Of a stretch of 64,000 bases of DNA, positions 26,930-64,000 are shown in pieces. Numbering within the stretch: position 1 is the stretch's first letter; each line of letters starts with the position of its first letter. Below the pieces are notes generated by a model. That model had not been told where the DNA came from. It saw only the letters and a program-made list of their open reading frames with translations, and searched no databases. The position numbers were made by a program, and so were the translations under genes. The DNA lies in the IMG/VR virus record IMGVR_UViG_3300044707_000321, positions 635 to 64,634 of that record. One strand, given 5' to 3'. This stretch comes from a virus. Taxonomy: Duplodnaviria > Caudoviricetes.

Positions 26930-26966
26930 TTGTTGTCAAAAATACTTTGTTTGTACTATTGAATGT
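26930..26966 (+). promoter_or_regulatory. Conserved phage promoter, copy 4 (rightward member of a divergent pair)
   Basis: TTGTTGTCA-N17-CTATTGAATGT-GTGAAT. Confidence 0.75.
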
Positions 26967-26999
26967 GTGAATGAGAAAATGAGAAAGGAAAAAAGATGA
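26967..26999 (+). CDS. 10-aa putative leader peptide MNEKMRKEKR, ATGA-coupled to the next gene
   Basis: GTG at the same position as in the other three promoter copies; stop overlaps ATG 26996. Confidence 0.4.
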   Translation: MNEKMRKEKR

Positions 27000-27451
27000 G
27001 AGTGAAAAACTTCACCACGATTCCGGATGAGATGGTTAGGGAGATAATCCGGCACACAGTTCCCTCCGGAGTGAAGAACTTCGACGTGAGAGTGTCCAAT
27101 CTTGGGCGGGACTACGGAGATAACACAAAAAGCGCAGGAGTCGCCGGTCGTGCCTATTCTCGCAGTCGATACCATGACCGGAGTTGCCCTTTCGTTGTCT
27201 GTCGGATCGATAAACTGGAAGATCCTAGCTACTACGAGCCTTACCAGTTGGGCCAACACAAAGGGAAAAGATACTGGTTGTACAACCGAGCCGAGAAGCT
27301 GGTTGTCATCATGGCTCACGAACTGCGCCACCTCTGGCAGTACAAACAGAAAAACAAACGAGGCTACTGCTGGGGATCCCGTGGACGCTCCTCTGAGGTG
27401 GACACCGAGGCTTACGCAATCAATCGCCTCAGAGCATGGAGGAAGCGATGA
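26996..27451 (+). CDS. Zincin-like metallopeptidase
   Basis: AHELRH..Q (HExxH) followed by EVDTEAYA third-ligand motif. Confidence 0.75.
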   Translation: MRVKNFTTIPDEMVREIIRHTVPSGVKNFDVRVSNLGRDYGDNTKSAGVAGRAYSRSRYHDRSCPFVVCRIDKLEDPSYYEPYQLGQHKGKRYWLYNRAEKLVVIMAHELRHLWQYKQKNKRGYCWGSRGRSSEVDTEAYAINRLRAWRKR

Positions 27452-28997: not shown

Positions 28998-29020
28998 CAA
29001 ACCAAAGAAAGGACACATAC

Positions 29021-29824: not shown

Positions 29825-29830
29825 ACATGA

Positions 29831-30511: not shown

Positions 30512-30513
30512 GG

Positions 30514-48136: not shown

Positions 48137-48414
48137 TTCTTTACCTCGGATTGAAGTACTCTCATCGCAGATGCCTCGTCCTCATCCATCATGCGAGACA
48201 ATGCTTTAAGTTGCCGGTACTTCTCTAGGTTAATCATGACGGTGTTCTGGTCTTTTTCCTCGTCCAAAATCCCTTGTGCCAGTCCTGCCGTAATTCCACC
48301 TAGACGCCTTACCCAGTAACGTTGAAACGACTGGTTTTGTCGAAGTGCCTTAATGTCGGCTATCGTTTCCTGCGCTACTGTTATCGACCGATCCCGTGCC
48401 TCGTTCTTATCCAT
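48133..48414 (-). CDS. Small helical protein downstream of the portal
   Basis: 93 aa; typical position after podoviral portals. Confidence 0.65.
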   Translation of the reverse strand: MDKNEARDRSITVAQETIADIKALRQNQSFQRYWVRRLGGITAGLAQGILDEEKDQNTVMINLEKYRQLKALSRMMDEDEASAMRVLQSEVKK

Positions 48415-50509
48415 TGGGAGTTTGTGGCACTTGGGAAGGATCTAAGGGGGTTATGATCGTTTCCGCATCAGCAATTTGAAGGGCTTTTAGCATTTGAATG
48501 TAAAGGCTTGCTACCTTCTGCTGAATCACCGGCGGATATGCGTAGAATTGCTGAACTAAGTTAGCCCCTTGGGTGGAAGATTGTAGGATCTGCTCGCCAC
48601 GATACCGTGTCAGAAGCAGTCGAACATCCATATCAAGGTTAGCAACCTCCTCCGGCGTAATGGATCCGATTTGAGCCTTGTCTCCTTCCAGATAAGTGAA
48701 CACCTCTTTGGAGTCCATATTTCTGAAAATCAGTTTAACTAAGCGGTCTAAGACTAGCTGAACACCTTGTTCCAAGTGAGATAGGTACAAGGCAAACATC
48801 TCCTGACCTGATTTCTCAATGTTACGTATGCCAGTGGCTAGCTTGGCCGGCTCAAGTCCTGCAAACTGCTGATCTCCGGCATTTACTACCCCTGATTCGA
48901 GTTGCACAACCTGAAGGAAGAACTCAACCATCTTAAATAGGTATTCGCTCTTAACTTCAGGAAGGGCCACGTACTCAAGGGCATCTTTAGGAGTTTTGCC
49001 GTGTGCCAGCGTGTAAGTACCACCATTGTTTAGAACAAGGTGGGGATTGGATCTTCCCTCAAGTGTGGCGTCTGGTTGCCAGAACGTAACACGTCCGGAT
49101 CCTCCCTGTGCGAAAGAGATCCGGTTAATCGTCAAATCGACAAAGTTTTGGCTAGGCTCAAACATTTCAACTGACCCGATCCCATACCAACGACCGTCCA
49201 CCGGATTGCACCGGATGATTGTAAATGGACGCCTACCATCAGGGGTAAGGTTTGCCGTATAGTCATAGAACAATGCTCGACGATTCTTAACATCAACTAG
49301 AACCATGATTTCCTCAAGGATCCCGTCTCCGTCTGCGTCGTAAGTCATATAAACTTCAGCAACCTCAACCAGAGGATTCTCAGTGTTAGGGGCTTGGGTT
49401 GTCTCCCCACGCTCGGTCTTAGCCTGACTAATACCGGCTTTAGGTGTTCCGGATTCACCGGCAAGCGACCTGATTAGCTCAATAGCACTCTTTGTTGCTA
49501 GTACGCTTTGCTCTGTGGACATGTCCAATAGGTTTTTGCGTTGGTATAGATCCGATAGCGTTGCTACCGGAACATCATAAAAGTGGGCTACAATATCTGC
49601 TTCATCTACTGATGGGGCATTCAAAGGACAGATAAAGTCCTTAAAATAAACAAGTCCGACATCAGGCCCACGCATAATAGTAGCCTTACGGGTAATAATC
49701 TTTTCCTCATAGATCGGTGTTGCCGGCATTTCTGTAACGCCGTCTCTGCGTAATACAGTCTGCATGCCCACCGGATTGCCGGCTTCATCTGAAATTATCT
49801 TTGTATCAAAAGCGTCAGTCTCAAGGATGTAATCACCGTCCTGAGCTAGAATATCTTTACCGGTTGGATCTACCAATACCTTAGCCAAACTCCTGTAAAT
49901 CTGTTCCTTGGATGCGTGAGTGGTCTTTACAATACATTCACCCCGCATGAAGGCTAATTCTACGGCCATCTGAAGTTTTGTTGCCGTGTCGGATTTGTCT
50001 AGTTTCCAACGAACATAATGCTCAACGCCATGCGCCTTTTCTGCGTCGCTTGCTCCCTGCGGGTAGGCCGAGAACCACGGATCCGTGCTGAAGAAGTAGT
50101 TGTTTGCTCTAGCAACCATCTGACGGGCAATTCGGCGGGTGATCGGTACGGTCAAGTTACTATCCTCAAAGATCCCGCCCAGCGAGGCAGGACGCCAATC
50201 GACCTGATTGTGATACATGAGTTCGAATAGCTCCCTGCGCCCCATAAAAGAGGCAGATCCCCTCGCTACCTCACTTGTGCGATACCATCCGGTTCCTCGA
50301 ACGATGTTTCGACCACTCTCCTGCTCAAGAGCAGTAAGTCGGTTTAGAATATGATTTACGAGTCGATCTTCCTGCTCTGCCGACAACGAATAAGCCGTTG
50401 GGAAAGGCACTTTTTGAGCCTGACCGGATAGTGGTGACGCCGGATCTGCCCCAGCGACTTTAATTGATTCGTCCGTTTTATCTAAGAATTGTTCGATTTG
50501 TTCTGCCAT
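48407..50509 (-). CDS. Portal protein
   Basis: 700 aa; EVY..YDADGDG..EE...RPF...P...RWYG.G..E...Q...N; AGGAG SD. Confidence 0.88.
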   Translation of the reverse strand: MAEQIEQFLDKTDESIKVAGADPASPLSGQAQKVPFPTAYSLSAEQEDRLVNHILNRLTALEQESGRNIVRGTGWYRTSEVARGSASFMGRRELFELMYHNQVDWRPASLGGIFEDSNLTVPITRRIARQMVARANNYFFSTDPWFSAYPQGASDAEKAHGVEHYVRWKLDKSDTATKLQMAVELAFMRGECIVKTTHASKEQIYRSLAKVLVDPTGKDILAQDGDYILETDAFDTKIISDEAGNPVGMQTVLRRDGVTEMPATPIYEEKIITRKATIMRGPDVGLVYFKDFICPLNAPSVDEADIVAHFYDVPVATLSDLYQRKNLLDMSTEQSVLATKSAIELIRSLAGESGTPKAGISQAKTERGETTQAPNTENPLVEVAEVYMTYDADGDGILEEIMVLVDVKNRRALFYDYTANLTPDGRRPFTIIRCNPVDGRWYGIGSVEMFEPSQNFVDLTINRISFAQGGSGRVTFWQPDATLEGRSNPHLVLNNGGTYTLAHGKTPKDALEYVALPEVKSEYLFKMVEFFLQVVQLESGVVNAGDQQFAGLEPAKLATGIRNIEKSGQEMFALYLSHLEQGVQLVLDRLVKLIFRNMDSKEVFTYLEGDKAQIGSITPEEVANLDMDVRLLLTRYRGEQILQSSTQGANLVQQFYAYPPVIQQKVASLYIQMLKALQIADAETIITPLDPSQVPQTPNG

Positions 50510-50550: not shown

Positions 50551-53500
50551 CTATTCCTTCAGTAAATCTTTTAACGGGATTCCGAACTGCTCTCTTCTTG
50601 CGTCGGTTCTAGCCTTCTGGATTGCGCTAGAGATTTTGTCCTTTGCCTCAGGGGTTTGTCCCATGCCTAACAATGGAGCTACGGCCATCTTCGCCTTTTC
50701 ACCAGCAGACTTGGTAAATCTGCTATACTGTTCAGGAGTCATCTTCTTGTCGTTGCCTGTCAGCGTCTTGTACGATGCCGTTGGCCTAGATACATAGAAC
50801 GGATCGGAAGGATTATTGCGGTTATACTTCATCATGAACTGGTCAAGTTTTGAAGGCTCAGGCGCATCCTCGAAAGTAATTGGACTGATTGCCCTGATAA
50901 GTGCGTTTCCACGCTTCTTAATCTCGACTCCCTCAGGAGTCCTTAGCGGGGGAGGCGCAAGCATTGGAGCAGGGAGAACGGAGTAGGCTATCCCCTTTAG
51001 GGTGTCTTTTCCGGTCTTGGTGTCCCGCACGTAAGGATCCATCTCTCTGAGGGGTTGGCGAATAAGATTGGGAACAAGTACTGTACCAAGTTGTCCTGCT
51101 GTCCATGTCCCAACGTTGTTCTGTCCGTTGAGGAGGTTGCCAAGATCATCCATCCCCCTCATGTATGTCTTACTTTCAACCGCTTGCATTAAGTAGGACT
51201 GGAACATCGCCAATACTTCTGCCGGCGGGAGTCCTTGCTGGCCCTTCTTGATTGCCCGAATCATATCCACGGTAGTACCTAGAGCAGTGGCAAGCGGATC
51301 GATGCGAGCGTAGCTAAACTGCTTGGATCCGACCCGAATCGTCATGGCTGGGAGAGTCCTGTTGGCTAGATCCCTCTCCCCTTGTCCGGTCAGCTTGGAA
51401 GGTTTAGATCCTGAGATTACGATGTATTTGTCATCGTCGTCATCGTCTCCCTCGACCATTCCCCATATCACGGCAGTCACCATGGATGAAACCAGTTGAT
51501 TCGAGATGTTCTCAATTACTTCGGGTTTCATGTCTGAGGATAAGCTGATCCCATCCTTGTCGAACCTTATGCCTCTTCCGATAGAGATCAGGGTGTCCGG
51601 AAGTCCTAGTGGGCTTTTCTTAACTCCCTCTTTCAAGAGGTTAAATGGTGTCCGAATGAATGGGAAAATTAGCTGGAAGGGCCGGAGTAGCATGCGACCA
51701 ACCTCTGACTCTGGACGGGCCTTCACGAACTTGTTGAGCGCACGGGCAGAAGCCCCGACAACATCCATAACGTTCTTTGATTCCCCGATGGTTGGAAGCT
51801 CGGTTTGGAAGGTGTACGCATACGCTTTCTCCGATGCCTTAATCCAAGCATCGCTCCCTGCCGTATTCACTTGCTCCCTAATAAACCTTTCCATCTCCTG
51901 ACCGGTAAGCCCGTTTGCCTTGCCCATCCGGTAGGCTTGTGCGCCAACCTCCATTTGTGCCGTCATTGTCTTTACAAAATCGTCAGTCGCCAAAAGAAGC
52001 CGGCTTGGGATTCGTATGAATCTGCCTTTTGCACCAGAAATACTTACTCCCCTTGTAGTAACGCCACCCTGCCTATCAAGTTCACCCAAGAGTTTGATCG
52101 GTTGATCCAGAATGTCCTCTTCAAAGAAGCCTGATTCGGTGTACCAAGTGGCAACCGCATTTGACCATGCCCTACTGATGGCCGGAGAGATACCCGCTAC
52201 CAAGGGCTTGAACTCACCGAAAGAAGCAGATTTAGGATCGTTGAAAGCTAGGTTCACCATAGACTGAATGCCTCTTCCGACTGTCATTTCATAGACCGAA
52301 AACGGCCCTGAAGATAAGTTGGCGATGAATGTCTTGGCTCCCGATAGGATCGAATTAACCCACATTTCAACCAGAATGTCGTCCATTGATGATTCTACTG
52401 TCTGGATCGCTCTTGCCACACGCTTGACCTGAATTGCATCCGTAATATCGAAAGTGTATCCATCTTCAGTAAGTTCTGGACGTGGGAAGTTTGGCCCAGC
52501 GGGAGCGACCTTAGCCCTGCGACGCTTAAACATGTTGGGTTTGGTGTATGCGTCATCTAGCCCCATGGCCGAAAGGATCCGGTCTGCTTGACGCAAGGCA
52601 TCGGCCTCAGAAACGTTTTGATTCCCGTAGGATGCGCTTGCGCCTAGCTCTTCCGTTGCCAAGTCCTCGACTGTTGCCCCACGACGGGTCTTAGGCATGA
52701 GTTTTTGGCGAATCTCTTCCGCTACGGACTGCCTGAGTGCTTCGATTTCCTCGGCCTTGAGTCCGGTGATTCGCTTGATCTTCGAAACGTCGTTCCTCTG
52801 TTGGATCATCCGAATTGCCTTAACTTCCCTTGGGTTAAGCCCCTTTAAGGTGTTGTCAATCATGCTGGATGTCTTGAGTGAAACTTGAACTTCACCGGAG
52901 AAGAGATCGGCGAGCGTAACCCCCCATTTACCAAGGGCAGTTTCAATCTTGGCTAGCCTCTTGGCAGTTTCACTTTGGAGAATGTCGTTCGAATCTGGTT
53001 CTTTCCGAACCCTCTTTAGTTCCTCTTCCGTAGTCGGATTCGATTCGTTTAGGAGTTGGGCCTCAAGCTGTTGGATCCTCCGGCTTTTCTCGGCAGGAGA
53101 GATGGCATACTTAATCTTTCGCTCGATTTCTTTCGTCGGGTTAAAGATTAAGTCTGTCAGGAATGCTTTGTGTCGTTCTGCCGGTGTCTTGTAGTCGTCG
53201 ATTCTGGCCCTGAGTGATCTTGCGACCTCTGATCCGGTCTGCCGGTAGGCGTAGGCCAAGATAGAAGCCTCTCGTTGAGCCTTCTCGTCGCCCGAAGTCA
53301 TAGCCCTACGTGCCAGCTTTTCAACAAGCAACTTGGCGGATCGCACCTCTACGTCGGTAGGCAGTCCGGCTTGAGATGGATCCACTGCCCTTTCGAGCAA
53401 CATGCGCTTTACGCCTTCCTCGTCGTTTGCGAGTAGCGCACGGGCCTCGGCCATCACGATAACGTCAGGCCGGCGTTGCAGGATGTCTTTTCGGGCCTCA

Positions 53501-56500
53501 TCCACCGCATTCACTAGGTTACGCCCCATGCCCTTAGCGGGGTTGGCTAGCGTTGGGTTTCCTGTGATTTTGAATCTGTTGCGTTCGTTATCTGCCTTGT
53601 TGATTAGCTCATTCGTTTCAGGCAACTCTTTACCTAGATAATCCATGTACTCTTCAACGGCATCCATGTCAGGATTCCGAGTGGGTGAGAAAAGTGATTC
53701 CATGGGTTTGAACCCTTCGTGGATCTCTCTTTGGGGATTTCTTACGCCCATAGCACTCATAATCGCCTGAGTTTTGTTCGGGAAAACCGAATGCGAAGTG
53801 GGTGTTATGCTTTGGCCGTCGGGGGTAATTACGGTTGTTGGGGATACAATCGCACCAAGAATACCATAACTGCTTGTGTATCTGGTTATCCGATATGCCG
53901 TGTTCCTGAAATCCGTAAGTGGAACTTGTTTGTAATTAAAATCATTTACTCCAACTTTATCTTCAGGATTTATAATTGCTTTCGATACAAGAAGTTTTTC
54001 GCCCTCATCGTTCTCAAATGCAATCACTCGATTATTCTCGTTCTGCTCAAGTACCTTGTAGGCTTCTTTAACTTTCTTGTTATTTTCTATCCTGATGTCC
54101 TCCATAATAGAATTGTTTTGGGCTATCTTACCAAACTTCTCAAACGACCACTTAAGATCGGGATATTTATCTAGGCTTTTATCTGTTTGGATCTGCCCCT
54201 TAGCCACATTATCCAAGGACGTCTTAGACGCTAGATACTCGGCAAGTGCTTCTATTACAAACTTTTTGCCTTCCTCTGAAATATCTCCTTTTCCGGTTTG
54301 GTCTTTTTCCGCAACTTCCATCATCGATTTCATGAATCCTAATTCAAACTGCTCTGCCTCATATCTTTTGTTGTTCGGAAGTCTAAACTTTGACTTGGAT
54401 TGTCTTGTTGAAGATCCAAGCATTTGCATCTCATCGTCCTGAATTGGATGAGCCTGTCTCCAAGCCTTTGCACTATCTAGGAACTCATCGATTCTTTCCG
54501 TAGCAAACTGATCTAAGGTCAATCCCCTGCTACGGGCCAATTCGGTAAGATACTCAGCCTGAGCCTGTTCCTCTTCCCTTGTAATTGCCCTAAGGGGAGA
54601 ATTGAGCCTAGAGATAATCTCCCGTGTGGATCCTGAAATAAGATCCTTAGTTTCCTCGATCCCTACCTTTGCCAACCTTTTCCGGAGTACTGAAAGGGCG
54701 TTGTTGAGCATCGTCAAAGCGTATTGTCGGGAAATCCCCATCTTTTCTGCGATTTGTGAGACTCCCTCCCCATTCATGTATGCCGATACAACCGTCCGTG
54801 GGCGAACCGGCAGTCCGTCAATCATGGTCTGCATGAGTCTTTGTGCGTCGTTTGTGATAGCGGATTGCGACGGCAAGCTCTGGTTTTCGTCCGGAATGAT
54901 GCTACCCAACGGGGCCGTGCTTTCGCCGGACACCGGAGAGTCAATGTTCATGGATCTCATGGAGATCTCACGGGCCGTTGCCTCGTTCCTAGAGTAGTTC
55001 TTTTTAAGTGCGTTCCGGACTACTGCCTTTGCATATTTATCAAAATCACCGGCATTCGGATCGAATCCCTGCACTGCTTTGATGAGTGCGATCCGGCCAA
55101 TCTGAATAGCCTCGTCTAGCGATGTCTGCGGGGAAACGAACGACCTAGCGATAGGCTCGATTAGGTTCATCGCATCTTTGGAGAGTAGGCTTGCCTTACT
55201 TGGCGTAAGGGCGGGAGCGTTCAACTGCATTTGCTCCGCTTCTACCCTCTTTGTCTTACCCTTGTCCGTGTAATCCTCCATGATCTTGGCGTATTTAGCC
55301 CTAAGACCATCTAGCTCTTCCTTCCTTGGGAATGCCTTGGAGGATGCGATTGTCGCTGAATCTGCCGTCTCTTGGGCAGATTCCATGCCGTTAATAAACT
55401 GTTTCTCGTAACTCTTGAGGTTCTTAACGAGATCCCTCAATGCGCTAACCACGTATCCTGCGCTCTTTACCTTCGAACCTAATTCACGTCCATTGACCAT
55501 GACTCCGGTTTCAACCTTGAATGCCTTCTTGGGATCCGGTTCACCTAGAATCTCATCTACTGAAGCCGGCGAAAGTGTGATTTTTGTTCCGTTGTATGTG
55601 AACTCGCCAAGTGGTTTCTTTGCCTCTACGGATGCTGGGAATGATTTTCCGGTTTGGACGGCCTGATCCCTACGCTTATCAAAGTACTGTTGGATAGCGT
55701 CACGGATGTCGTTTTCTTTAGTCAATGCTACGCCTTCGATCATGGCCGTAGGCTCAGGCGTCCAGTTTGATACTTCGCTTAGGAACTCCCTTGTCTGGTT
55801 AAGCCTGTTTTCGTATGCCTTGACCTGAAGCTCGGCATTCTTGCCGGCCTGAATTGCATCGAATGAGGATTGAACCCATGCCCGTTCCTGATTTTCTAGC
55901 TCACGGATCTTTGTCTCTGTGTTAAACTTCTCAAGCCCCATTGGGCCGGACAAGATGGCCTTTTGCTCTGCTAGGCTGAGAAGCCCCGAATCATCCTCAA
56001 TGACACGACCGCTAATCTTTCCACTCAATGCCTGTTTAATGAATCTTTCCTTAAACTCTAGCTTCTGCCAAAGGGCCGAATCCAACGTATCCTTCATGCC
56101 GTACCGGTAGATTTCAACCGGTATGCCAAGCTCTGAGTGAATGTTGCCCTGACGGATTACCCGCCCGTCCCGTTGCTCCATCTCTGCCGGAGTCCAAGGC
56201 ACGTCCAAGTTATGTCCGGCAATCATCCGGCCTTGCATGTTCACGCCAGTTCCCAGCTTTTGCGTCGATCCAATAATGATGCGAACCGTTCCGTTGTTCA
56301 CCTTCTCAAATAACTGCTCTTTTGCTTGATCGGTCTTAAAATCGTTAATAACTGCAATCTCTTCAGGCTTTACTCCCTTTTTGATCAGCTTCTCTTTGAT
56401 GTCTGTATAAAGGTTGAATCCGCCCATGAATTCCGCTTCACGCTCTTCTTTTTCTTCCTCTTTTACACCAGAAATAAGATCCATTCCCGAATCTTCACTG

Positions 56501-59500
56501 TCATCAGTTTCAACGCCCGAATCCAATCCATTGAATGACAAGGATTCCGTTTTCATGGGCCGGTAACGATCAGAGAAGATTACTTGGGTTCCGTTGTAAT
56601 CATTCGTTCTCTTGTAGAGTTCGAACACCTTTTCAATCATGGTGTTTGATTTGCTCCCAGCCTCATCCTTTGCCTTGTCATCCACCAAACGCATGTCGAT
56701 TGATGCAAGTTTGCAAGCATTGTAAGTAACTAGCGGAATATGACTGTTTTCCTTCTTTTCCCGTCCATCCATGCTGTCAAAGTCGTCAATGATTCTATCG
56801 ATAATCTTTTTGTATTCGATTACCTGAGGAGTTGCCTCGACCGCAATAAGGTCAGGTTTGCCGTCTTTGATTTCGGGCCGGTTCTTTACGACCATATCCC
56901 CGCCCATCTTGACGTCTGCTCTAGTCCGGAACATCTTGTTCCACTCAGGCAAGTTAGCCAATTTCGATAGACGTTGGATGCTCTTATACTTTCCGTTGGC
57001 CCTTAGTTCTGCGCTTCTCTCTACCTCTGCGAATGTAGAAACAAACGAATCAAAGCTAGATGAACCAAACTCGGCCAATAGTTCGGGATCGATAAGGCGA
57101 ACCTGATTCCAAACTTCACCAAGGGTATTTGTTACCGGTGTGCCAGTCATCGTGAACATATTCCGGCCCTTGTTCTTTTCCTGAATAAATCGTGCTTTGG
57201 TTAATAGGCTTGTTCCTGATTCGGTGGGCGAATTATCGATGCCGGCGATATTCTTCAGCTTTGTTACGAAAGGCATCTTTTTGTAGATATGCGCCTCGTC
57301 CAGAATAATAGCGTCCACCCCTAGTTCTTGGAACGTAAGGACATCATCGACCTTGCGTTCTTGTACTCGCTTGAGTCTTTCTTCGAGCCTCTTGATCTGC
57401 TTCTCCTTCTCCTTTACGGATGGATCCTTCTTTTTAGAGATCCTGCCGTAACGACTAACCTCGTTGCTTTCACTCATGGTTTGAGCGATAGCATCCCGAA
57501 GCTCATCTATAAGCTCATAGGTGATCTTTTTTACGTATTCCGGATCGTCCTTGATCTGGTTAAAGGTTGAGTGGGCCATCACGACCGCATCCCAGTCTCC
57601 TGAGGCTATTTTCGCCACAAACTCCTTGCGCTTGCTCTTTTCGAAGTCTTTCTTACGGGCAACAAGGACACGGGAAGTCGGGGCCATTCTTCCAATCGTT
57701 CCGGCAAACTGTTCCAAAGTAGCGTTGTGGACAACGATCATCGGCTTCTTGGCTAGTCCAAGGCGACGAAGTTCCATGGTCAGAGCAGTGCCGATGACCG
57801 TTTTTCCTCCTCCAACCCCGTGAGCAATAAGCATTTTGCCGTCCTGAATAGCCCTCCAAACCACGTTCTTTTTGTCTGGATATAAGTCGTATCCCTTGGC
57901 AAGCCACGGGAATGTGAGGAATTGACCATCGTACTGACGTAACGCATGGGAGTTCCGCTTCTCGTTGTACTGTTTTGCAAGTTCTTCAGAGACTTCAGGC
58001 TTGGATGATGCGTATTGGGCGAAAGATTCCTTGATCTTCTCCATGGCAAGTTTTGCCTTTTCGGTTTCACCGGCATTCAAAACCTTCTTCTCGTCGATTG
58101 TGTCAAATACCATCGGCGTTTGCATGTTAAGTGCCATCTCAAGCAGTCGAACTCCCGACATTCTATCGGTTCCGTAGATACTTGTGGCTACTGAGGGAAG
58201 GTCTGCCATTGATCTTGCGCCCTTGCCGTCGGATCCGTAAGTAACCGTGTACCTATCTGAAGAAACATCCCCAACCCCCTTGCTATACGTGACTGTAACC
58301 CGTGTCTTGAGTATGCTTCTCCCGAAGTCAGAGATGATGTCCGTCGGGATCCAGTTCGCCCCAAGGTTCATTGATATGTCGGAGAACGGCACATCTACCG
58401 GTTGCACTTTCTTTAGTGCCTCGATGTTTGCCTCGTAACTGTTGTCTTTTTTGGCCTTTTCTTCGGCTATCTTAAGTTTCTTTCTTACGTTGCCACTCAG
58501 GTATTCTTCCTTTGTGGACACAAGGCCGGTAGCTGGATCCCTAAACCCGATACCCTTGCTAAGAATGTCGTTCTCGACCTCATCCTTTGACTTCCCAATC
58601 AATCCAGCGATGTAGTCGGTATCAAGAGTACCCTTCCAACCGAGGGATATGCCCATGGCATCCTCAACGGATGAAGCAGAAGTCGGCTCCTGCCTTGGAG
58701 TGAGGATCCGCTTTGTGAAAATATCACCCTTCGTGTAGTTCTTTTTCCTAGTCAGGAACTTCTTAACGTTCTCGGCCTTGCTATCAGACTTTACCTCATT
58801 TTCGGCTCCTATGATCCGGTAATAATCGGGATCAAAGTCTAGTAGCTTACTATTTGCATGGAATGATCCATTCCGTGCCACAAAGTTGTCATAGGCAACA
58901 TTCAGTGCCTTCCGTTGATCTTCAATCTCGGCGTCCTGAGATTCCGGATCCATTTCCATCCGATACAATTCATTTAGGGCGTCCCTGACTTGAATGAATC
59001 CCGTGGCGATAGGCCGATTTTTGGGACTAAGGATTTCTTCATCTGAGTTCTCTACTCCGGCTATCCCAAGTTTCCCGTCCTCAAGCATCGCTAGAGTGCC
59101 AACCTTCTTGCCCCGCATCGCTTCTTCGTTTGTTATTGCCTCCCGATCAACCGGCTTACTCTGGCCCATCACGTCGCCGGATAGCTTCTCTAGGGATTTG
59201 CTAAGAAGGCTTTCTAGTGTTCTTCCGTCCTGAAAAGGACGTACTGTCATCTCTTCCTTGCCACCGTACATAGATCCGTCGTTGGCAAGTCGGCCAAGAA
59301 TCATGTCTGGATTCCGGTCGAAGTACTCATTGATCTTCACTGTTCCACCGTTATCTAGTGACACTTCTTTTGTGCTTTTGAACGATTCCGGATTGAAGCT
59401 AGGCATCTTGCCGTCCGGTTTTCTGATGAAGATGATGTCCGTCGTGACCTCTGTATTGGCATTCTCGCTGAATGCAGTGTTTGGAAGTCTTACTGCTCCA

Positions 59501-62500
59501 ATCAGTTCCCCGTGATCTGCAATCCATTTTCTCTGAACCACGTTGGCGTCCAGAGTGTTGCTTGTGGTGATAAAGGCTACAACCCCGCTGGGCCGAACCT
59601 TCTCAAGTGCCTTGGCGAAGAAATAGTTATGAAGCGACAACTTAGGCGCACCCTGAGCCTCAAGCCCTGAGTCGTACATTTGAACGTTGGCGAAAGGCAC
59701 GTTAGATATTGCGAGATCGATGGAGTTGTCCGGAATGTCTGCATCTTCGAATCCTGTGATCTGAACGTCGGTTTCGGGATAGAGTTTCCGCATGATCCTT
59801 CCGGATAGAGAGTCAAGCTCGACGGCCTTTGTGTAGGACGCATCGGCCATGTCCTTAGGCATTAGCCCAAAGAAGTGACCGATCCCACCGGCGGGTTCGA
59901 GTACTGTTCCACCATTGAATCCCAACTTCCTAACCGCATCCCACATGTAGTTAATGACTTTAGGCGACGTATAGTGAGCATTAGTTGTACTTGCTTTTGC
60001 AGATCTAAACTCATCCTCGGAAAGAAGATCTTTTACTTCATTGTAATACTTCCCGTATTTCTTATTCCAGTTCTCTACGGATTTAATTTCCTCTTCGTCG
60101 TAATATCCATATCGACGCATTTCATCAATCCTGCTTGCTCGATCCGCCTTATCTTCATCCAAGGCTTGCGACAAACCACCCCAGCCAACGTATTGAGCTA
60201 GGATCTTCTTCTCTTCGGTTGTCGCATTCCTGTCCTCTGACTCAAGTTTTTTGAGTAGTTGAATTACCGATATGTTTGTCTTGAGTCTTGTTACGTCACC
60301 CTTTGGGGCAAGTATGTCCTCAGGGGTGATTTCGTGATTTCTTTCCGGCGTACCCTCCGCAGGACGTTCTACGGTAGGTTTAACTCGAACGGGCAGATTT
60401 TCTCTAGCACTGTCTTGATTACTGCCAACGCTTCCGGATTCTCCTTCGATAAGATTAGTATCTTGCGTTCCGCTTTGTACACCGTCTCCTGATCTAATTC
60501 CGCCTGTTGGCTCGACTCCGCCTCGTTGTCCGACTGAATCCATTCCATCTCCGGATACCTCTCTAGGATAAACTTCTCTAGGAGTGCCGGATTCTTGGCT
60601 AGCTGGTTGAGTTGATCGGTTGGCGTATTCGCTAAAAAGCTCATCGCTCCCTCGTAGTCCGTCCTGAGTTCGGGCGGGTTCTTCGGTTGATTGTCTTGTT
60701 CTTGGTTGTCCATATTGTTCTCCACTTTCAATACCCCCTTGTTTGCTGTTTGACAACACCGAAGCACTGCCGGTTTCGTCAAAAAGGCTTAATTGATTAG
60801 CGTCTTGAGTGTTACGACGGGGGGCTGAAAGGGCAAACTCCTTAACAACTCCAACCGCATTCTGCCATCCTGCCAACATAAGTCCTTGGGAGGTAGCATT
60901 TCCGTCAATAATTGTGTAAGTGCCGTCCCCATTATCCGCAAGGTCAATGGGTTCTCTTGGTGTAAATGTCTCTCCATTAAGGTTTGAAACCATGCGATTG
61001 ATAGCTGTTTGCCGTGGATCCGCCTTCTTTCCTGCTACAAATCCCTCATCGTTAAGCTCATTTACCGGCGAAATCAGCTTATCTAGCTTAACGACGAATG
61101 ATCCTGATGCCTTTGTATTGAAGATAATCCCAAGCGAAGCCTCGTTTTCTGACACGTTTGCCAACCTAGAACTATCGACCGTACCCCTAAAATCCTCAAC
61201 ATTTGCATAAACGATACTTTCAGGTTGCGGAACTGCGTATTTCTGGCTATTGATTGTTGTCATGCCAACAACACCTGATGATCCTTCCAGAGTTCCGGAT
61301 CTCGACGAATTGATTTCTGATCCTAAAACCAAGCTGTTCGACGTTGATGATACCCCTGTCGCAGTACTTGGAGTAAGGGCTTGGCGTTGCGATGATGTTC
61401 CGCTTACTCGATTTCCACTTGTCTCTACGTTCGAGGCTCCACGGGTAAGATCCTTGGATGCGTTTAAGCGTTTGGTGATCAAGTCCCGTGCGCCTCGCCA
61501 AACCTGATCTACTTTTCCTTGTAACTCTTCGATCTGACGTTCGATAGCTAGAACTTCTTCACTGTTTCGAATAGTTGTAGCCAAGGCTTCAAGGCTACGA
61601 ATCTTTTCGTAGAAACGATGTCCAATATCCTTAGCCAACAACATTTCGGGTAAGTTAATCTGTACTTCTGCCTCCCAATTTAATCCGTCCCACTCAATAA
61701 GAATTAACCGGTGGGCATAGCCGGTGTTCTCGGTATCCAGATAAAGGTTCTTCTTGTCTTGTGTTACTCTTGCGTATTTCTGGATTTCAGCAATCGCCTC
61801 ATCCATTTCATCCAGCGTATTGACGGAAATCGTGGCCCGAAGAATGTCTTTTGCGTCATCTGCAACTACGCCCTTCTTTTCGAAAATGATTTTCTCTGCA
61901 AGCCTCTTCATCTTTTTGGGAGATGCAACTAGCGCAATCCAGTCTCTTCCGGCAGTTACTTTTCCAATAAGATCTCTAAAGTTATCCTGTTGCTTGCTTA
62001 CGCCTTCCAAGAAACTCGCCAGTACCTTGCTTGCTCCTACTCCGTTCAGATTCACTTTATTCCCGTCCGGAAGCGTGATGTCGATGGCAGGATCACCAAC
62101 TGAAAGGATCTTCTCAAGTCTCTCTTCAAATTGGTATGCCTGAGGAGGTAAGGATGCTCCGGATGGAACCGGCTCAAGCATCTTGTTAATTAGCCCGTAT
62201 AAACCGTTTTTATGGTAGTTCGCAACGTATTGGGCGATTTTTTGCTTTTGTGGATTCTTGGAAAGATCAAGGAATGCCGAAAGTTTTCCTGCCAATGTCT
62301 CTGCGGTATTCCTTGCAGGACTACTAAGCGTCTGCGTCGAATCACCCTTAGATACGATGGATGTTGCCATTTTAAGGACATCCATAACAGTCAATGGCAG
62401 TTCTGTTTCAGGGAACATTCCGCCCCCGTAGGCTTGCCGTTCCCGTTTCATGGCTTCTGCGGAAACCGCATAGGTTCTCAGGAAGTCGCCAATCGCTCGG

Positions 62501-64000
62501 CCCGTGGGATTCTCTGCGATGGTTCTCATCATGAACTCAGTTTCGGGCGAAGCCTCAGACTCAATCCCTTGGAGTCTCCCTTGGCTTAGGAAGTCCTCCA
62601 TCTTGCCATCGTTTTCCTTGTACTTAACAAACTCTTCAACGGCCATAGTCAGGGTTGGCTTAATGTCCAATTCCCCGTCACCAAGAACCGCTAGATCCGG
62701 CCCAGCCTGTACAAGTCCGGCACGGAGTCCGATAAGACCGAGATTTTCCGCATCTTCCGCAAGAGTCGTAATGAGAGTGTCGCTACCTTGACCAAAGTTA
62801 AGGGCCATAAGTGCGCCCATAACCCTGTTCTCCATAGCCTTGCTCCAAGTACCGTTCTTGTTTCTTAACTCTCTAGGAGATCCGATTGCGTTGTAGAAAT
62901 CAGATAAAACCTTGTCGTTGCGCTTAAGAAGTATCTCTCCATTCGATCCGGCCCGTAGGTTGCTGATCAGCTTGGGATTATCGATAAACTCAAGCGCATC
63001 GTATGATGCTTGTTCCGCCACACTCATTCCCTCGATGTTCGAATCCCTAACGAATTGCCGAATCTTGCTAGGATTCTCGTCACCCTGATACATACCCACG
63101 TAGTCGGGGCGTTTCATTGTATCGACCTTTGCTATCTCCGATTCCGGTTCGCCCATCTGTCGCATCGTGTTCTTGATCTCATCCCTAAGCCCTTGAGCGT
63201 TCTTTTGGCCTAATGCTTGATCTGCCGATGGTGTCTCGGCCATTTGATAAACAAGGTTTTTGGCGTTTGTCCTGCCGTGACCGCTATAAATACGACCATC
63301 CTTACCTACAATCGTAAGACCGGTATCGGAAGTAGAAGCCGGCCTAGCCCACATCGCATGATTCGGATTCCTTGCGATCTTTAGCTCTTGTTCCCTGTTA
63401 CCCGCCCGTGTCCTGTCCCGTGGCTGAAGGTTTGTTCCAGCCGATGATTTAAGATCCCCCAATTCGACAAGTTGCCCCTGAACTGGGACGCTCATCGTAT
63501 TCTTCGGTGTGGCTACATTGTAGCTACGCCCTTGGGTTGAAATAGCGGGAGATCCTGCCAACCCACTTGCTCCGGTGGTTCCTCCCTCATTCGTTTGGCT
63601 AGCTGATCCAGTTCCAACTCCACTTCTATTCTGAGGAACAGAAGTAGGTAATCCTGTGGCGGGAACCCCTTGAACGGTTGCAGTGTCGGTTGTCTTGGCA
63701 CTGTTTCCATAGCCAATTTTCGCCCGATCCGCAGATATTTTGTTTAACGCTCCTAGCTTGTCCATTGTGCTGATGATTCGCTCTTTAGCTTCGTTGGCTA
63801 AAGGAGCGTCCATCTTGTACGCACCGGAAGTTATCGCATCTAGGATCTTTTTAAGTGCATTTATGAAGTAGGGCAAAAACTCCGGATTTGTTTGAGCCTC
63901 TTCAGTCATGAAGCCCAACACACGCTCATCCTTCTGGACAATCGCTCGTATGAACTCTTGCCCTATTTCATAATGTTCTAAATCGGTAAGCTCACCGGAG
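50551..64000 (-). CDS. Giant polyvalent virion protein (>4480 aa, 5'-truncated): DdrB-ParB, RelA/SpoT, ParB, DarB-like N6-MTase plus SNF2 helicase, sigma-70 domain, LPD38-like C-terminus
   Basis: Frame stays open to the window edge (SGELTDLEHYEIGQEFIRAIVQKDER...); domain motifs listed in the sub-features. Confidence 0.92.
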   Translation of the reverse strand, partial: SGELTDLEHYEIGQEFIRAIVQKDERVLGFMTEEAQTNPEFLPYFINALKKILDAITSGAYKMDAPLANEAKERIISTMDKLGALNKISADRAKIGYGNSAKTTDTATVQGVPATGLPTSVPQNRSGVGTGSASQTNEGGTTGASGLAGSPAISTQGRSYNVATPKNTMSVPVQGQLVELGDLKSSAGTNLQPRDRTRAGNREQELKIARNPNHAMWARPASTSDTGLTIVGKDGRIYSGHGRTNAKNLVYQMAETPSADQALGQKNAQGLRDEIKNTMRQMGEPESEIAKVDTMKRPDYVGMYQGDENPSKIRQFVRDSNIEGMSVAEQASYDALEFIDNPKLISNLRAGSNGEILLKRNDKVLSDFYNAIGSPRELRNKNGTWSKAMENRVMGALMALNFGQGSDTLITTLAEDAENLGLIGLRAGLVQAGPDLAVLGDGELDIKPTLTMAVEEFVKYKENDGKMEDFLSQGRLQGIESEASPETEFMMRTIAENPTGRAIGDFLRTYAVSAEAMKRERQAYGGGMFPETELPLTVMDVLKMATSIVSKGDSTQTLSSPARNTAETLAGKLSAFLDLSKNPQKQKIAQYVANYHKNGLYGLINKMLEPVPSGASLPPQAYQFEERLEKILSVGDPAIDITLPDGNKVNLNGVGASKVLASFLEGVSKQQDNFRDLIGKVTAGRDWIALVASPKKMKRLAEKIIFEKKGVVADDAKDILRATISVNTLDEMDEAIAEIQKYARVTQDKKNLYLDTENTGYAHRLILIEWDGLNWEAEVQINLPEMLLAKDIGHRFYEKIRSLEALATTIRNSEEVLAIERQIEELQGKVDQVWRGARDLITKRLNASKDLTRGASNVETSGNRVSGTSSQRQALTPSTATGVSSTSNSLVLGSEINSSRSGTLEGSSGVVGMTTINSQKYAVPQPESIVYANVEDFRGTVDSSRLANVSENEASLGIIFNTKASGSFVVKLDKLISPVNELNDEGFVAGKKADPRQTAINRMVSNLNGETFTPREPIDLADNGDGTYTIIDGNATSQGLMLAGWQNAVGVVKEFALSAPRRNTQDANQLSLFDETGSASVLSNSKQGGIESGEQYGQPRTRQSTEEPARTQDGLRGSDELFSEYANRSTQPASQESGTPREVYPREVSGDGMDSVGQRGGVEPTGGIRSGDGVQSGTQDTNLIEGESGSVGSNQDSARENLPVRVKPTVERPAEGTPERNHEITPEDILAPKGDVTRLKTNISVIQLLKKLESEDRNATTEEKKILAQYVGWGGLSQALDEDKADRASRIDEMRRYGYYDEEEIKSVENWNKKYGKYYNEVKDLLSEDEFRSAKASTTNAHYTSPKVINYMWDAVRKLGFNGGTVLEPAGGIGHFFGLMPKDMADASYTKAVELDSLSGRIMRKLYPETDVQITGFEDADIPDNSIDLAISNVPFANVQMYDSGLEAQGAPKLSLHNYFFAKALEKVRPSGVVAFITTSNTLDANVVQRKWIADHGELIGAVRLPNTAFSENANTEVTTDIIFIRKPDGKMPSFNPESFKSTKEVSLDNGGTVKINEYFDRNPDMILGRLANDGSMYGGKEEMTVRPFQDGRTLESLLSKSLEKLSGDVMGQSKPVDREAITNEEAMRGKKVGTLAMLEDGKLGIAGVENSDEEILSPKNRPIATGFIQVRDALNELYRMEMDPESQDAEIEDQRKALNVAYDNFVARNGSFHANSKLLDFDPDYYRIIGAENEVKSDSKAENVKKFLTRKKNYTKGDIFTKRILTPRQEPTSASSVEDAMGISLGWKGTLDTDYIAGLIGKSKDEVENDILSKGIGFRDPATGLVSTKEEYLSGNVRKKLKIAEEKAKKDNSYEANIEALKKVQPVDVPFSDISMNLGANWIPTDIISDFGRSILKTRVTVTYSKGVGDVSSDRYTVTYGSDGKGARSMADLPSVATSIYGTDRMSGVRLLEMALNMQTPMVFDTIDEKKVLNAGETEKAKLAMEKIKESFAQYASSKPEVSEELAKQYNEKRNSHALRQYDGQFLTFPWLAKGYDLYPDKKNVVWRAIQDGKMLIAHGVGGGKTVIGTALTMELRRLGLAKKPMIVVHNATLEQFAGTIGRMAPTSRVLVARKKDFEKSKRKEFVAKIASGDWDAVVMAHSTFNQIKDDPEYVKKITYELIDELRDAIAQTMSESNEVSRYGRISKKKDPSVKEKEKQIKRLEERLKRVQERKVDDVLTFQELGVDAIILDEAHIYKKMPFVTKLKNIAGIDNSPTESGTSLLTKARFIQEKNKGRNMFTMTGTPVTNTLGEVWNQVRLIDPELLAEFGSSSFDSFVSTFAEVERSAELRANGKYKSIQRLSKLANLPEWNKMFRTRADVKMGGDMVVKNRPEIKDGKPDLIAVEATPQVIEYKKIIDRIIDDFDSMDGREKKENSHIPLVTYNACKLASIDMRLVDDKAKDEAGSKSNTMIEKVFELYKRTNDYNGTQVIFSDRYRPMKTESLSFNGLDSGVETDDSEDSGMDLISGVKEEEKEEREAEFMGGFNLYTDIKEKLIKKGVKPEEIAVINDFKTDQAKEQLFEKVNNGTVRIIIGSTQKLGTGVNMQGRMIAGHNLDVPWTPAEMEQRDGRVIRQGNIHSELGIPVEIYRYGMKDTLDSALWQKLEFKERFIKQALSGKISGRVIEDDSGLLSLAEQKAILSGPMGLEKFNTETKIRELENQERAWVQSSFDAIQAGKNAELQVKAYENRLNQTREFLSEVSNWTPEPTAMIEGVALTKENDIRDAIQQYFDKRRDQAVQTGKSFPASVEAKKPLGEFTYNGTKITLSPASVDEILGEPDPKKAFKVETGVMVNGRELGSKVKSAGYVVSALRDLVKNLKSYEKQFINGMESAQETADSATIASSKAFPRKEELDGLRAKYAKIMEDYTDKGKTKRVEAEQMQLNAPALTPSKASLLSKDAMNLIEPIARSFVSPQTSLDEAIQIGRIALIKAVQGFDPNAGDFDKYAKAVVRNALKKNYSRNEATAREISMRSMNIDSPVSGESTAPLGSIIPDENQSLPSQSAITNDAQRLMQTMIDGLPVRPRTVVSAYMNGEGVSQIAEKMGISRQYALTMLNNALSVLRKRLAKVGIEETKDLISGSTREIISRLNSPLRAITREEEQAQAEYLTELARSRGLTLDQFATERIDEFLDSAKAWRQAHPIQDDEMQMLGSSTRQSKSKFRLPNNKRYEAEQFELGFMKSMMEVAEKDQTGKGDISEEGKKFVIEALAEYLASKTSLDNVAKGQIQTDKSLDKYPDLKWSFEKFGKIAQNNSIMEDIRIENNKKVKEAYKVLEQNENNRVIAFENDEGEKLLVSKAIINPEDKVGVNDFNYKQVPLTDFRNTAYRITRYTSSYGILGAIVSPTTVITPDGQSITPTSHSVFPNKTQAIMSAMGVRNPQREIHEGFKPMESLFSPTRNPDMDAVEEYMDYLGKELPETNELINKADNERNRFKITGNPTLANPAKGMGRNLVNAVDEARKDILQRRPDVIVMAEARALLANDEEGVKRMLLERAVDPSQAGLPTDVEVRSAKLLVEKLARRAMTSGDEKAQREASILAYAYRQTGSEVARSLRARIDDYKTPAERHKAFLTDLIFNPTKEIERKIKYAISPAEKSRRIQQLEAQLLNESNPTTEEELKRVRKEPDSNDILQSETAKRLAKIETALGKWGVTLADLFSGEVQVSLKTSSMIDNTLKGLNPREVKAIRMIQQRNDVSKIKRITGLKAEEIEALRQSVAEEIRQKLMPKTRRGATVEDLATEELGASASYGNQNVSEADALRQADRILSAMGLDDAYTKPNMFKRRRAKVAPAGPNFPRPELTEDGYTFDITDAIQVKRVARAIQTVESSMDDILVEMWVNSILSGAKTFIANLSSGPFSVYEMTVGRGIQSMVNLAFNDPKSASFGEFKPLVAGISPAISRAWSNAVATWYTESGFFEEDILDQPIKLLGELDRQGGVTTRGVSISGAKGRFIRIPSRLLLATDDFVKTMTAQMEVGAQAYRMGKANGLTGQEMERFIREQVNTAGSDAWIKASEKAYAYTFQTELPTIGESKNVMDVVGASARALNKFVKARPESEVGRMLLRPFQLIFPFIRTPFNLLKEGVKKSPLGLPDTLISIGRGIRFDKDGISLSSDMKPEVIENISNQLVSSMVTAVIWGMVEGDDDDDDKYIVISGSKPSKLTGQGERDLANRTLPAMTIRVGSKQFSYARIDPLATALGTTVDMIRAIKKGQQGLPPAEVLAMFQSYLMQAVESKTYMRGMDDLGNLLNGQNNVGTWTAGQLGTVLVPNLIRQPLREMDPYVRDTKTGKDTLKGIAYSVLPAPMLAPPPLRTPEGVEIKKRGNALIRAISPITFEDAPEPSKLDQFMMKYNRNNPSDPFYVSRPTASYKTLTGNDKKMTPEQYSRFTKSAGEKAKMAVAPLLGMGQTPEAKDKISSAIQKARTDARREQFGIPLKDLLKE
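54670..55170 (-). other. Sigma-70 family domain (regions 2 and 4) embedded in the giant protein
   Basis: LI..IARSF...LDEAIQIGRIALIKAVQGFDP..GDF.KYA...VRNAL (region 2); IDSPV...LG.IIPD; LP.RPR.VV...G.GVSQIAEKMGISRQ....LNNAL..LRKRL (region 4). Confidence 0.85.
56020..57900 (-). other. SNF2/SF2 helicase domain (DarB-like)
   Basis: AHGVGGGKT, LDEAH, TGTPVTN, GTGVNMQ, PWTPAEMEQRDGRVIRQGN. Confidence 0.93.
59250..60300 (-). other. N6-adenine DNA methyltransferase domain (DarB-like)
   Basis: YVGWGG, NAHYTSP, VLEPAGGIGHFFG, ELD, ISNVPF, HNYFF. Confidence 0.93.
60845..61105 (-). other. ParB/Srx-like domain of the giant protein
   Basis: REPIDL.DNGDGTYTIIDGNAT...L...GW. Confidence 0.7.
61590..61930 (-). 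other. RelA/SpoT-type nucleotidyltransferase domain of the giant protein
   Basis: K..KRL.EK, KDILRATI, TGY.H, AEVQI, GH.FYEK.R. Confidence 0.75.
62450..63525 (-). other. DdrB-like ParB domain of the giant protein
   Basis: LVEL.DL..S...LQPRDR.R...I...SGHGRT...F...SN...MS..EQA..DA. Confidence 0.75.

Follow-up and report, generated by a model that had tools for sequence, protein, structure and literature searches.

A compact sigma-70-family factor embedded in a giant, portal-adjacent phage protein

We describe a compact sigma-70-family factor embedded in a giant protein of a phage (Duplodnaviria; Caudoviricetes) represented by the virus record IMGVR_UViG_3300044707_000321. The DNA that we analyzed is a stretch of 64,000 nucleotides (hereafter the window), corresponding to bases 635-64634 of the 64,634-base record. 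The latter has a direct terminal repeat of 127 bases and is rated complete, and the phage genome is 64.5 kb and circular. The protein (hereafter the giant) is encoded next to the portal gene, and its sigma module, which lies between a DarB-like region and a conserved C-terminal module, is the only sigma factor of the genome. We give slightly better than even odds (roughly 55%) to the reading of the giant as an internal virion (ejection) protein that carries early-acting tools, among them a sigma factor that would let the incoming genome use the host core polymerase at once. This interpretation is plausible and was strengthened by the present analysis, but it is not proven.

Identification of the sigma module

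An earlier note on this DNA, made by a model from the letters alone, had proposed a sigma module at 54670..55170. We found it at 54673..55164 on the minus strand, i.e., as a module of ~164 amino acids (aa) with regions 2 and 4 joined by a linker resembling region 3.2. It spans residues 4385-4548 of the full protein, or 2946-3109 of the part encoded in the window. The coding strand is the minus strand, as the plus-strand translation of 54670-55170 is full of stops, and the two peptides from which the module had been recognized both lie in the minus-strand open reading frame (ORF) of the giant (DEAIQIGRIALIKAVQGFDP at 55057-55116 and SQIAEKMGISRQ at 54724-54759).

The NCBIfam model of the sigma-70 family, TIGR02937, matches the module over positions 13-165 of its 165, and this single hit (66 bits, E 3e-18, with a cut-off of 42.9 bits) runs from region 2 through region 4. 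The Pfam model Sigma70_r2 scores 30.7 bits on the 4,482-aa window part (cut-off 24, residues 2946-3005) and 35.2 bits (E 1.1e-8) on the isolated 214 aa. When the module was searched against the sequences of the PDB, all 38 chains found at E<=0.01 were sigma factors. The alignment with RpoS covers regions 2.1-2.4, followed by the region-3.2-like stretch NIDSPVSGESTAPLGSIIPDE, which leads into region 4. The module also has the region 2.1/2.2 pattern D..Q.G...L..A...FDP..G.F..YA...RN.L, which is the conserved core of the sigma modules embedded in other large proteins (39 aligned rows). Hence, regions 2 and 4 are both present, in that order. The length of ~165 aa and the two-domain layout are reminiscent of extracytoplasmic function (ECF) factors; the part of RpoS that aligns with the linker is region 3.2. 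The next-best NCBIfam models (RpoS, SigB/F/G, and SigE/K) all score far under their cut-offs, and TIGR02937 is itself a superfamily-level model.

The earlier note had recognized no stand-alone sigma or RNA polymerase gene, and our searches agree. When the entire record was searched in all six frames, Sigma70_r2 matched at one site only, the module of the giant. Neither an RNA polymerase nor a second sigma came up among the other 49-50 ORFs of at least 100 aa, which were scanned with Pfam and PHROG. The module is confirmed as a compact sigma-70-family factor and as the only one in the genome.

Predicted structure and contact with the core polymerase

We folded with AlphaFold2 (AF2) the 292-aa unit lying between two copies of a flanking motif (see below), using an alignment of 54 stand-alone relatives. 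The model has a mean predicted local distance difference test score (pLDDT) of 82.8. It consists of a sigma2 domain of three long helices (unit residues 11-93, 54955..55203 on the minus strand, pLDDT mostly >90) and a sigma4 domain with a helix-turn-helix (unit residues 121-189, 54667..54873, minus strand), separated by a linker modeled with low confidence. A small helical domain follows the sigma module and precedes the second motif (unit residues 219-274, full-length residues 4580-4635, 54412..54579 on the minus strand), with a pLDDT of ~91-96 over unit residues 220-260. Segments resembling ...WR..HP are also found beside the sigma module in the large proteins P0043, P0064, and P0075.

A structural match had been proposed as a check, and both domains superpose on solved sigma domains, with root-mean-square deviations (rmsd) of 1.4-2.2 A. 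A Foldseek search of the PDB gave 61 matches at E<=1e-3, and all 50 of those listed are sigma factors. The sigma2 model aligns with the N-terminal domain of SigE (8b3z_B: Z 11.8, rmsd 1.4 A, 75 residues) and with residues 373-446 of the Escherichia coli sigma70 fragment 1sig (Z 10.3, rmsd 1.7 A, 73 residues). The sigma4 model aligns with sigma-H (3mzy: Z 11.1, rmsd 1.4 A, 71 residues) and with the sigma4 domain of SigL (3hug_A: Z 10.7, rmsd 2.2 A, 79 residues).

The earlier note had also suggested modeling the module with the polymerase. We predicted its complex, with its alignment, with the first 400 residues of the beta-prime subunit of Cerasicoccus frondis, a stand-in from the probable host phylum. 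The predicted contact scored 0.44 and the best of three controls 0.00, which is the level called 'weak support'; since solved holoenzymes exist, the score possibly reflects likeness only. At least 40% of the contacts agreed between runs, and the pLDDT of the partner was at least 62. In the calibration, 116 of 157 solved complexes reached the mark, as did 2 of 215 mismatched pairs. Only 18 of the 157 solved complexes reached it with a score of 0.60 or less, and the two mismatched pairs that passed both scored in this range.

Architecture of the giant protein

The ORF of the giant is longer than the 4,456-4,482 aa that the window suggests, because it crosses the ends of the record. Once the circle is unrolled, it measures 5,922 codons between stops and 5,921 when counted from its GTG start. 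The gene thus takes ~17.8 kb, or 27% of the genome. Its 3' part is at 50551..63999 on the minus strand (codons 1440-5921 and the stop, i.e., the 4,482-aa window part) and its 5' part at 3..3809 on the same strand (codons 1-1269, GTG start at 3809). Codons 1270-1439 fall in the 634 bases of the record that precede the window (record bases 1-634). The protein database holds a cluster representative of the same architecture with 5,921 aa, and a second giant of 5,901 aa with the same architecture, whose sigma module is 90% identical to that of the window. PF28553, PF28554, and PF28555 are pre-assigned to the giant in this database.

The N-terminal region (full-length residues ~1-1440, minus strand) matches no Pfam or PHROG family. 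Pfam searches, run on whole segments and on pieces, gave no family for the first 1,269 aa, the 170 codons of the junction, or the last 1,369 aa; the only hint was the RelA_SpoT match described below. The first recognizable domain is a ddrB-like ParB at 63184..63501 on the minus strand (full-length 1606-1711; PF18763, 49.1 bits, cut-off 27.6). A large DarB-like region then occupies 55174..60819 on the minus strand (full-length 2500-4381) and has the makeup of a methylase next to a SNF2/ResIII helicase. There, phrog_10089, annotated as 'DarB-like antirestriction', matches residues 1061-2942 of the window part with 1466 bits (E 0) and ends where the sigma module starts. The DNA methyltransferase family phrog_11801 scores 611 bits on the giant. 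ResIII, SNF2-rel_dom, and Helicase_C all exceed their Pfam cut-offs, and the match to the Eco57I methylase is weak (E 0.06). By these profiles, the giant has the layout of P1 DarB-like antirestriction proteins, in which an adenine methylase is fused to a superfamily 2 helicase. Between the ParB and DarB-like parts, a stretch at 61636-61920 on the minus strand (full-length ~2130-2230) has a sub-threshold match to RelA_SpoT (16 bits, cut-off 27, E 0.015) and a GY.H...E.Q-like sequence. This stretch may represent a degenerate domain of the alarmone-synthetase type, which has been reported in polyvalent proteins of phages.

The sigma module is bracketed by a short motif, (R/K)xEAEQ[MF][QE]L, as had been claimed. 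The motif has exactly two copies in the 5,921 aa, one 18 residues before the module and one ~100 residues after it. The upstream copy, EAEQMQL, is at 55222..55242 and the downstream copy, EAEQFEL, at 54340..54360, both on the minus strand; they are the only two matches to [AE]EQxxL, and the downstream one is kept in the 90%-identical relative P0003. Short recurring motifs are also seen at the domain borders of many giants (P0005-P0142; at full-length residues 2508, 4362, and 4656 in the window). They are of two types, one like QLxLxF (QLSLFD, QLELDF, QLEFEE, QFELGF) and one like D-G-[IV]-L-x-[AS]. These motifs resemble the beta-clamp-binding consensus. For the flanking motifs QFELGF, QMQLNA, and QLSLFD (full-length 2508), this reading was set aside in favor of linkers or sites of possible cleavage, given that QLxLxF and D-G-I-L-x-A stretches of this kind are found at many domain borders of other giants. 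The border motifs could be protease sites.

C-terminal module and association with the virion

Downstream of the sigma unit lies a conserved C-terminal module of ~1,260 aa (50554..54333 on the minus strand, full-length 4662-5921, with a core at 50554-52497). In 17 giants, the sigma module immediately precedes a module of ~1,100-1,260 aa that is ~30% identical to that of the window, and the C-terminal modules have the landmarks GRPDLA, AYRxTG, GDDDDDDK, and VPNxIRQPL in common. The 648-aa core, modeled by AF2 with 34 relatives, reached a mean pLDDT of 85.8 and a predicted template modeling score (pTM) of 0.83. We searched this model in BFVD, a collection of predicted viral structures, and obtained 55 matches at E<=1e-3. 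The top ones are polyvalent proteins (with ART-PolyVal, MuF_C, or LPD domains). The core also matches proteins deposited as 'Internal virion protein' in cultured, marine T7-like podoviruses, from Pelagibacter phage Eyrgjafa EXVC018P (E 1.6e-14, query TM-score (TMq) 0.60) and from the Synechococcus phages S-CBP2, S-CBP3, and S-RIP1. In a language-model atlas, it falls beside clusters of viral 'hypothetical proteins' of ~670-700 aa, and the nearest cluster having a Pfam family carries LPD38, a domain that the main text of PMC5512222 gives as restricted to phage-type polyvalent proteins.

A weak second sigma4-like helix-turn-helix occurs within the C-terminal module at 52699-52839 on the minus strand (LNPREVKAIRM...GLKAEEIEALRQ), with 4.8 bits against a hidden Markov model (HMM) of the embedded sigmas. 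The same place is also hit in the giants of C. frondis and of locus L016 (see below).

The next gene, at 48407..50509 on the minus strand, begins 42 nt after the stop codon of the giant and encodes an SU10-type portal (SU10_portal, 102.8 bits in Pfam; phrog_1216, portal). Among the window ORFs, there is also a weak Pfam match to the SU10 adaptor. This neighborhood recurs. A profile scan of IMG/VR with the alignment of the C-terminal module left 78 loci, of which 40 have a homolog of the window portal; in 37 of the 78, the portal starts from -25 to +1523 nt from the stop of the giant on the same strand. By its annotated surroundings, the giant is encoded among portal, terminase, and virion genes, as phage-type polyvalent proteins are. 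The portal adjacency, the predicted fold of the internal-virion type, and the MuF_C and other polyvalent domains in relatives lend indirect support to the premise that the giant is delivered with the virion, which we infer from sequence and model.

Distribution of the architecture

To assess how widespread such embedded modules are, we searched the 214-aa piece exhaustively with HMMER against 1.84 billion representative proteins, which gave 1,508 matches at E<=1e-3. The best 150 of the 1,508 comprise 38 proteins of at least 1,000 aa (up to 6,277), 12 of 400-999 aa, and 100 of less than 400 aa. In 37 of these 38 long proteins, a full sigma module lies deep inside the protein; the remaining one, P0021, is a repeat artefact. 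Pfam was run on 13 of the 38. Sigma70_r2 passed its cut-off in 11, one showed region 4 without region 2, and in one neither was found at E<=1e-4. Polyvalent families are present in eight of the 13 (MuF_C, LPD1, LPD3, LPD5, InPase, Kinase-PolyVal, ddrB-ParB, RadC, and, below threshold, ART-PolyVal). The embedded modules follow the pattern Q.AR.aL..AA..FDP..GpF..yA...irN.L, then sLD.p, then LP.r.r ... Ia...Gis.Qav......A...lR..L. In a quick maximum likelihood tree of 151 modules, those of large proteins cluster together (12 changes, against a shuffled mean of 34.7).

Among the 78 IMG/VR loci, 13 have the sigma in the same ORF as the C-terminal module, and 17 could not be assessed because the ORF is incomplete. 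A tblastn search of the sigma module against 50,697 phage records gave only four unannotated, uncultured human-faecal fragments, at 24-26% identity, and no phiEco32-like phage. A scan of genome contigs with a single C-terminal protein found no relative, and a scan of species-representative genomes with a six-row C-terminal alignment gave eight loci. Seven are in Verrucomicrobiota (three Verrucomicrobiales bins, one Chthoniobacterales, one Verrucomicrobiia, one Verrucomicrobiota bin, and the cultured Cerasicoccus frondis NBRC 105381) and one is in a Thermoplasmatota metagenome bin. The host of the window phage is probably a member of Verrucomicrobiota. The Thermoplasmatota locus (L017, an archaeon bin) encodes a C-terminal module of 26% identity in an ORF of 2,424 aa, which may be due to a binning error or to a wider host range.

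Two of the eight loci, C. frondis and L016, carry the sigma in the same ORF, and a third, L013, ends inside the sigma. The ORF of C. frondis has 3,987 codons from stop to stop and encodes LPD3, Kinase-PolyVal, Sigma70_r2 (46.4 bits), Sigma70_r4 (24.3 bits, cut-off 24.1), and the C-terminal module; an ORF matching SU10_portal follows 21 nt downstream. The giant of L016 has ddrB-ParB, LPD5, LPD1, and the sigma. The giant of another locus, L011, holds an internal LAGLIDADG domain, maybe an intein-type insertion.

Candidate promoters

The earlier note had pointed to TTGTTGTCA as a promoter element. This sequence has 8 exact copies in the window, and 34 with at most one mismatch, where 17.7 are expected. 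Four copies, at 23866(-), 25770(-), 26887(-), and 26930(+), have a 42-nt design in common, TTGTTGTCA-N16/17-(A)CTATnGnA-n-G-n-GTGAA. The strict extended pattern has three exact matches, and 0.00 are expected. These are the sites at 26846..26887 on the minus strand (TTGTTGTCA-N17-CTATGGAATGCGTGAA), at 26930..26971 on the plus strand, divergent from the former and 25 nt upstream of a plus-strand ORF at 26996..27451, and at 25729..25770 on the minus strand. The fourth, at 23824..23866 on the minus strand, is a near match whose downstream block is shifted by one base. All four lie within the early/regulatory region (23.8-27.0 kb), and two of them form a divergent pair. A scan of 21000-31500 with the sigma-70 consensus found 6 sites (9.4 expected) and picked none of the four. 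It is reasonable, from sequence, to regard these sites as candidate targets of a phage-specific sigma. What stands of the promoter claim is that four extended, clearly non-random sites exist; no observation favors this sigma over a host sigma or a repressor as the factor acting on them.

Other copies of TTGTTGTCA, at 14754, 27769, and 61254 (+), are not promoter-like. Each makes up one half of a TTGTTG(N9-10)CAACA(A) inverted repeat, and one of the three is inside the gene of the giant. A AAACCTCCCCGCC stretch follows two of the promoter-like sites in the transcribed direction (~23810-23825 and 25712-25728, minus strand). The plus-strand ORF at 26996-27451 (151 aa) overlaps a minus-strand ORF at 26936-27481 (181 aa). 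The former may be the real gene, since it has a promoter-like site 25 nt before it and a purine-rich stretch ahead of its ATG.

Role of the embedded sigma factor

If the giant is an ejection protein, it would be made late with the other structural proteins and packed into the capsid via its C-terminal internal-virion module, beside the portal. It would be ejected into the next host cell along with the DNA. There, the sigma module would bind the host core RNA polymerase, either within the giant or after cleavage at the two EAEQxxL motifs, and would steer it to phage-specific promoters, giving the first transcripts without new protein synthesis or the host primary sigma. The methylase-helicase and ParB parts would meanwhile protect the DNA. 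Since the sigma is encoded only in a gene of the structural block, we infer that it could act early only if the particle brings it along. Packaging, ejection, processing, core binding in vivo, and the use of the promoters would all belong to this proposed course of events. A more specific version seems to us possible, if doubtful. The C-terminal module would build a channel, and the sigma, attached or released at its cytoplasmic end, would capture the core polymerase where the leading DNA end emerges and start non-canonical phage promoters; transcription might then help to draw in the genome, as in T7.

Several observations weigh against an injected, functional sigma factor. The prediction with beta-prime does not exceed the 'weak support' level. 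Of the Pfam models that the earlier note had suggested as a check, the one for region 2 passes its cut-off, but those for region 4 remain slightly below theirs on the 214 aa (Sigma70_r4_2 at 23.6, cut-off 25.7; Sigma70_r4 at 18.3, cut-off 24.1), even if TIGR02937 spans both regions. Primary sigmas contact the -10 element by two tryptophans. In the alignment with RpoS, this pair is replaced by A and V in the window module, and the positions are variable among embedded modules. The ~4,380 residues that precede the sigma and the ~1,370 that follow it might hinder the assembly of a holoenzyme, and the Pfam scans found no peptidase domain in the giant. The four promoter-like sites have a -35-like TTGTCA followed, 18 nt on, by a -10-like element starting with TAT; they could be host-sigma promoters or repressor sites. 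Concerning the virion, 'Internal virion protein' is a name given by depositors and carried by predicted structures, and the C-terminal core has no convincing match among solved structures by Foldseek on the PDB or by VIA-align wide. The best Foldseek matches (E 0.13) are all membrane transporters and were taken as noise; the best VIA-align wide match (Z 5.0 over 88 residues) was taken as due to chance. In the tree, a long branch with a weak placement separates the window module and its 90%-identical relative from the main cluster of embedded modules, and the history and constraint of these two may differ from those of the cluster. Finally, in 48 of the 61 assessable IMG/VR loci no sigma is seen in the part of the upstream ORF that is available, and L011 (a Verrucomicrobiales bin, ORF 3-11141) has ART-PolyVal and LPD37 in the place of the sigma. 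Seen in 13 IMG/VR loci but not in 48, the sigma is, as far as these sequences tell, a cargo domain that the portal-adjacent giants of this widespread family may have or lack.

These observations leave room for other explanations. One might expect a late sigma that just shares its polypeptide with a structural protein, where an unpackaged pool or a cleaved fragment drives late or structural genes and the packaged copy is transcriptionally idle in the next cell. The giant gene does sit in the structural block, the genome has no other sigma, and phages with SU10-type portals have been described, in an excerpt of PMC4281155, with a stand-alone sigma for middle and late promoters. We nevertheless regard this as unlikely. 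The four promoter-like sites are in the early/regulatory region and not ahead of the structural genes, and a late sigma inside a late gene would be unable to start its own expression. Moreover, two features agree better with a role as cargo: in 17 giants the sigma invariably comes right before the internal-virion module, and it keeps company with other predicted injected effectors.

The sigma could otherwise bind the core polymerase without initiating at specific promoters, acting as a decoy that sequesters it (host shut-off) or as a tether that anchors it at the cytoplasmic end of the ejection channel. That the core-binding pattern of regions 2.1/2.2 is the best-conserved part, that the tryptophans melting the -10 element are absent from the window module, and that contact with beta-prime is predicted all fit this explanation. 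A pure core-binding decoy has, however, no need of sigma4, and this domain is well folded in the model and keeps its recognition helix in the embedded modules (Ia..Gis.Qav...A...lR..L), which makes the explanation improbable in our view. We consider it very unlikely that the module, though derived from a sigma, has ceased to act with RNA polymerase and instead binds DNA or has a structural role, for example by holding the giant on phage DNA in the capsid or at entry. Such a loss of function would agree with the low scores of the region 4 HMMs, the long branch of the window module, the dispensability of sigma in most relatives, and the second weak sigma4-like helix-turn-helix of the C-terminal module. 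Yet both sigma domains are kept with their order and spacing, TIGR02937 scores well over its cut-off, the window phage and the relative with the 5,901-aa giant keep 90% identity in the module although their giants diverge more elsewhere, and we know of no description of a non-sigma use of a sigma2 domain.

Genome context

The phage looks podovirus-like, with its SU10-type portal, because no tape measure or tail tube protein was recognized in the PHROG and Pfam scans of the window ORFs of at least 100 aa. In the same scans, we identified a terminase-like gene (8140-9900) and a capsid gene (41530-43020), both on the minus strand like the giant. We also identified a tail-repeat protein, an endolysin, RecT, an exonuclease, a DnaC-like loader, a replication initiator, and a short divergent regulatory region. 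A WxcM/FdtA sugar-isomerase-type cupin (44165-44602, minus strand; Polysacc_synt_C, 59 bits; FdtA, 37.8 bits) has an unusual position amid the block of head genes. No tRNA genes were found in the genome. Relatives among known phages are scarce. The gene of the giant had no megablast match in the 50,697 phage records, and a tblastn search with the portal for cultured relatives gave just three weak matches, to uncultured Caudoviricetes.

Relation to known systems and implications

Packaging and injection have been predicted for the polyvalent proteins of phages and conjugative elements, among them DarB of phage P1 (Iyer, Burroughs, Anand, de Souza, and Aravind 2017, PMC5512222, main text). By its domains, the giant is a member of this group with a DarB-like middle part. 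Like other polyvalent proteins, it joins many unrelated domains, including ddrB-ParB and the methylase-helicase (with LPD, MuF_C, ART, kinase, and InPase domains in relatives), and its gene lies beside portal and terminase genes. Unlike in those with an N-terminal MuF, its packaging-related module appears to be C-terminal and similar to internal virion proteins. The main text of PMC5512222 further predicts that some phage polyvalent proteins 'jump-start transcription' via N4-like RNA polymerase or protein-modifying domains, and the injected-sigma reading follows the same logic. In that main text, sigma has no occurrence, as a word or as the Greek letter, and excerpts of a jumbo-phage survey by the same group deal only with stand-alone phage sigmas. 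The earlier note knew of no characterized case of the arrangement. Our full-text literature searches, in which PMC5512222 is covered by its main text, likewise yielded no paper that describes a sigma domain within phage proteins of the polyvalent, internal-virion, or ejected kind.

Functional parallels are giant virion proteins ejected for early transcription without new protein synthesis, namely gp50 of N4 and the tape-measure-fused RNA polymerase of Thermus phage P23-45 (excerpts of PMC13434306, PMC4496689, and 10.1101/2022.12.01.518664). These deliver a catalytic polymerase, whereas the giant, in which no polymerase domain was found, would deliver the specificity subunit only and borrow the host core. 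According to parts of PMC4281155, phiEco32 (gp36) and SU10 (gp32) use a small ECF-like stand-alone sigma with the host core enzyme and a promoter motif of their own; this sigma is a separate middle-gene product of 25.8 kDa that acts on middle and late promoters. The window phage has the Pfam portal family, and weakly the adaptor, in common with SU10, but its sigma is internal to a giant of the structural block. T4 Alt, an ADP-ribosyltransferase packaged in the capsid and injected, retargets the host RNA polymerase at entry (PMC5512222, main text). It modifies the polymerase enzymatically, whereas the window module would supply a subunit for promoter recognition. In the related giant of L011, the domain that takes the place of the sigma before the C-terminal module is ART-PolyVal, and T4 Alt is likewise an ADP-ribosyltransferase. 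Among T7-like podoviruses, the proteins named internal virion proteins by the depositors of pelagiphage and cyanopodovirus genomes have the same predicted fold as the C-terminal core of the giant; they are ~770-1,230 aa long and have no sigma. Among solved structures, the core matched neither the T7 core proteins nor any other PDB chain.

The proposal is testable, since a relative with the same layout is present in the cultured C. frondis NBRC 105381 and the window phage offers four candidate promoters. Sigma would be an added domain type for the polyvalent proteins and would give a functional handle on the C-terminal 'internal virion' module. Early phage transcription is known to proceed from promoters of the host holoenzyme, by injected RNA polymerases (N4, phiKZ/AR9, P23-45), or with the help of injected enzymes that modify the host polymerase (T4 Alt). 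If our reading is true, a sigma borne by the particle would be a fourth and cheaper route, in which the phage brings the specificity subunit and uses the catalytic core of the host, and early expression would be independent of protein synthesis and of the host primary sigma. As dozens of giant polyvalent lineages bear the module, the strategy would then be a general one, used by many uncultured podovirus-like phages that infect Verrucomicrobiota and other hosts.

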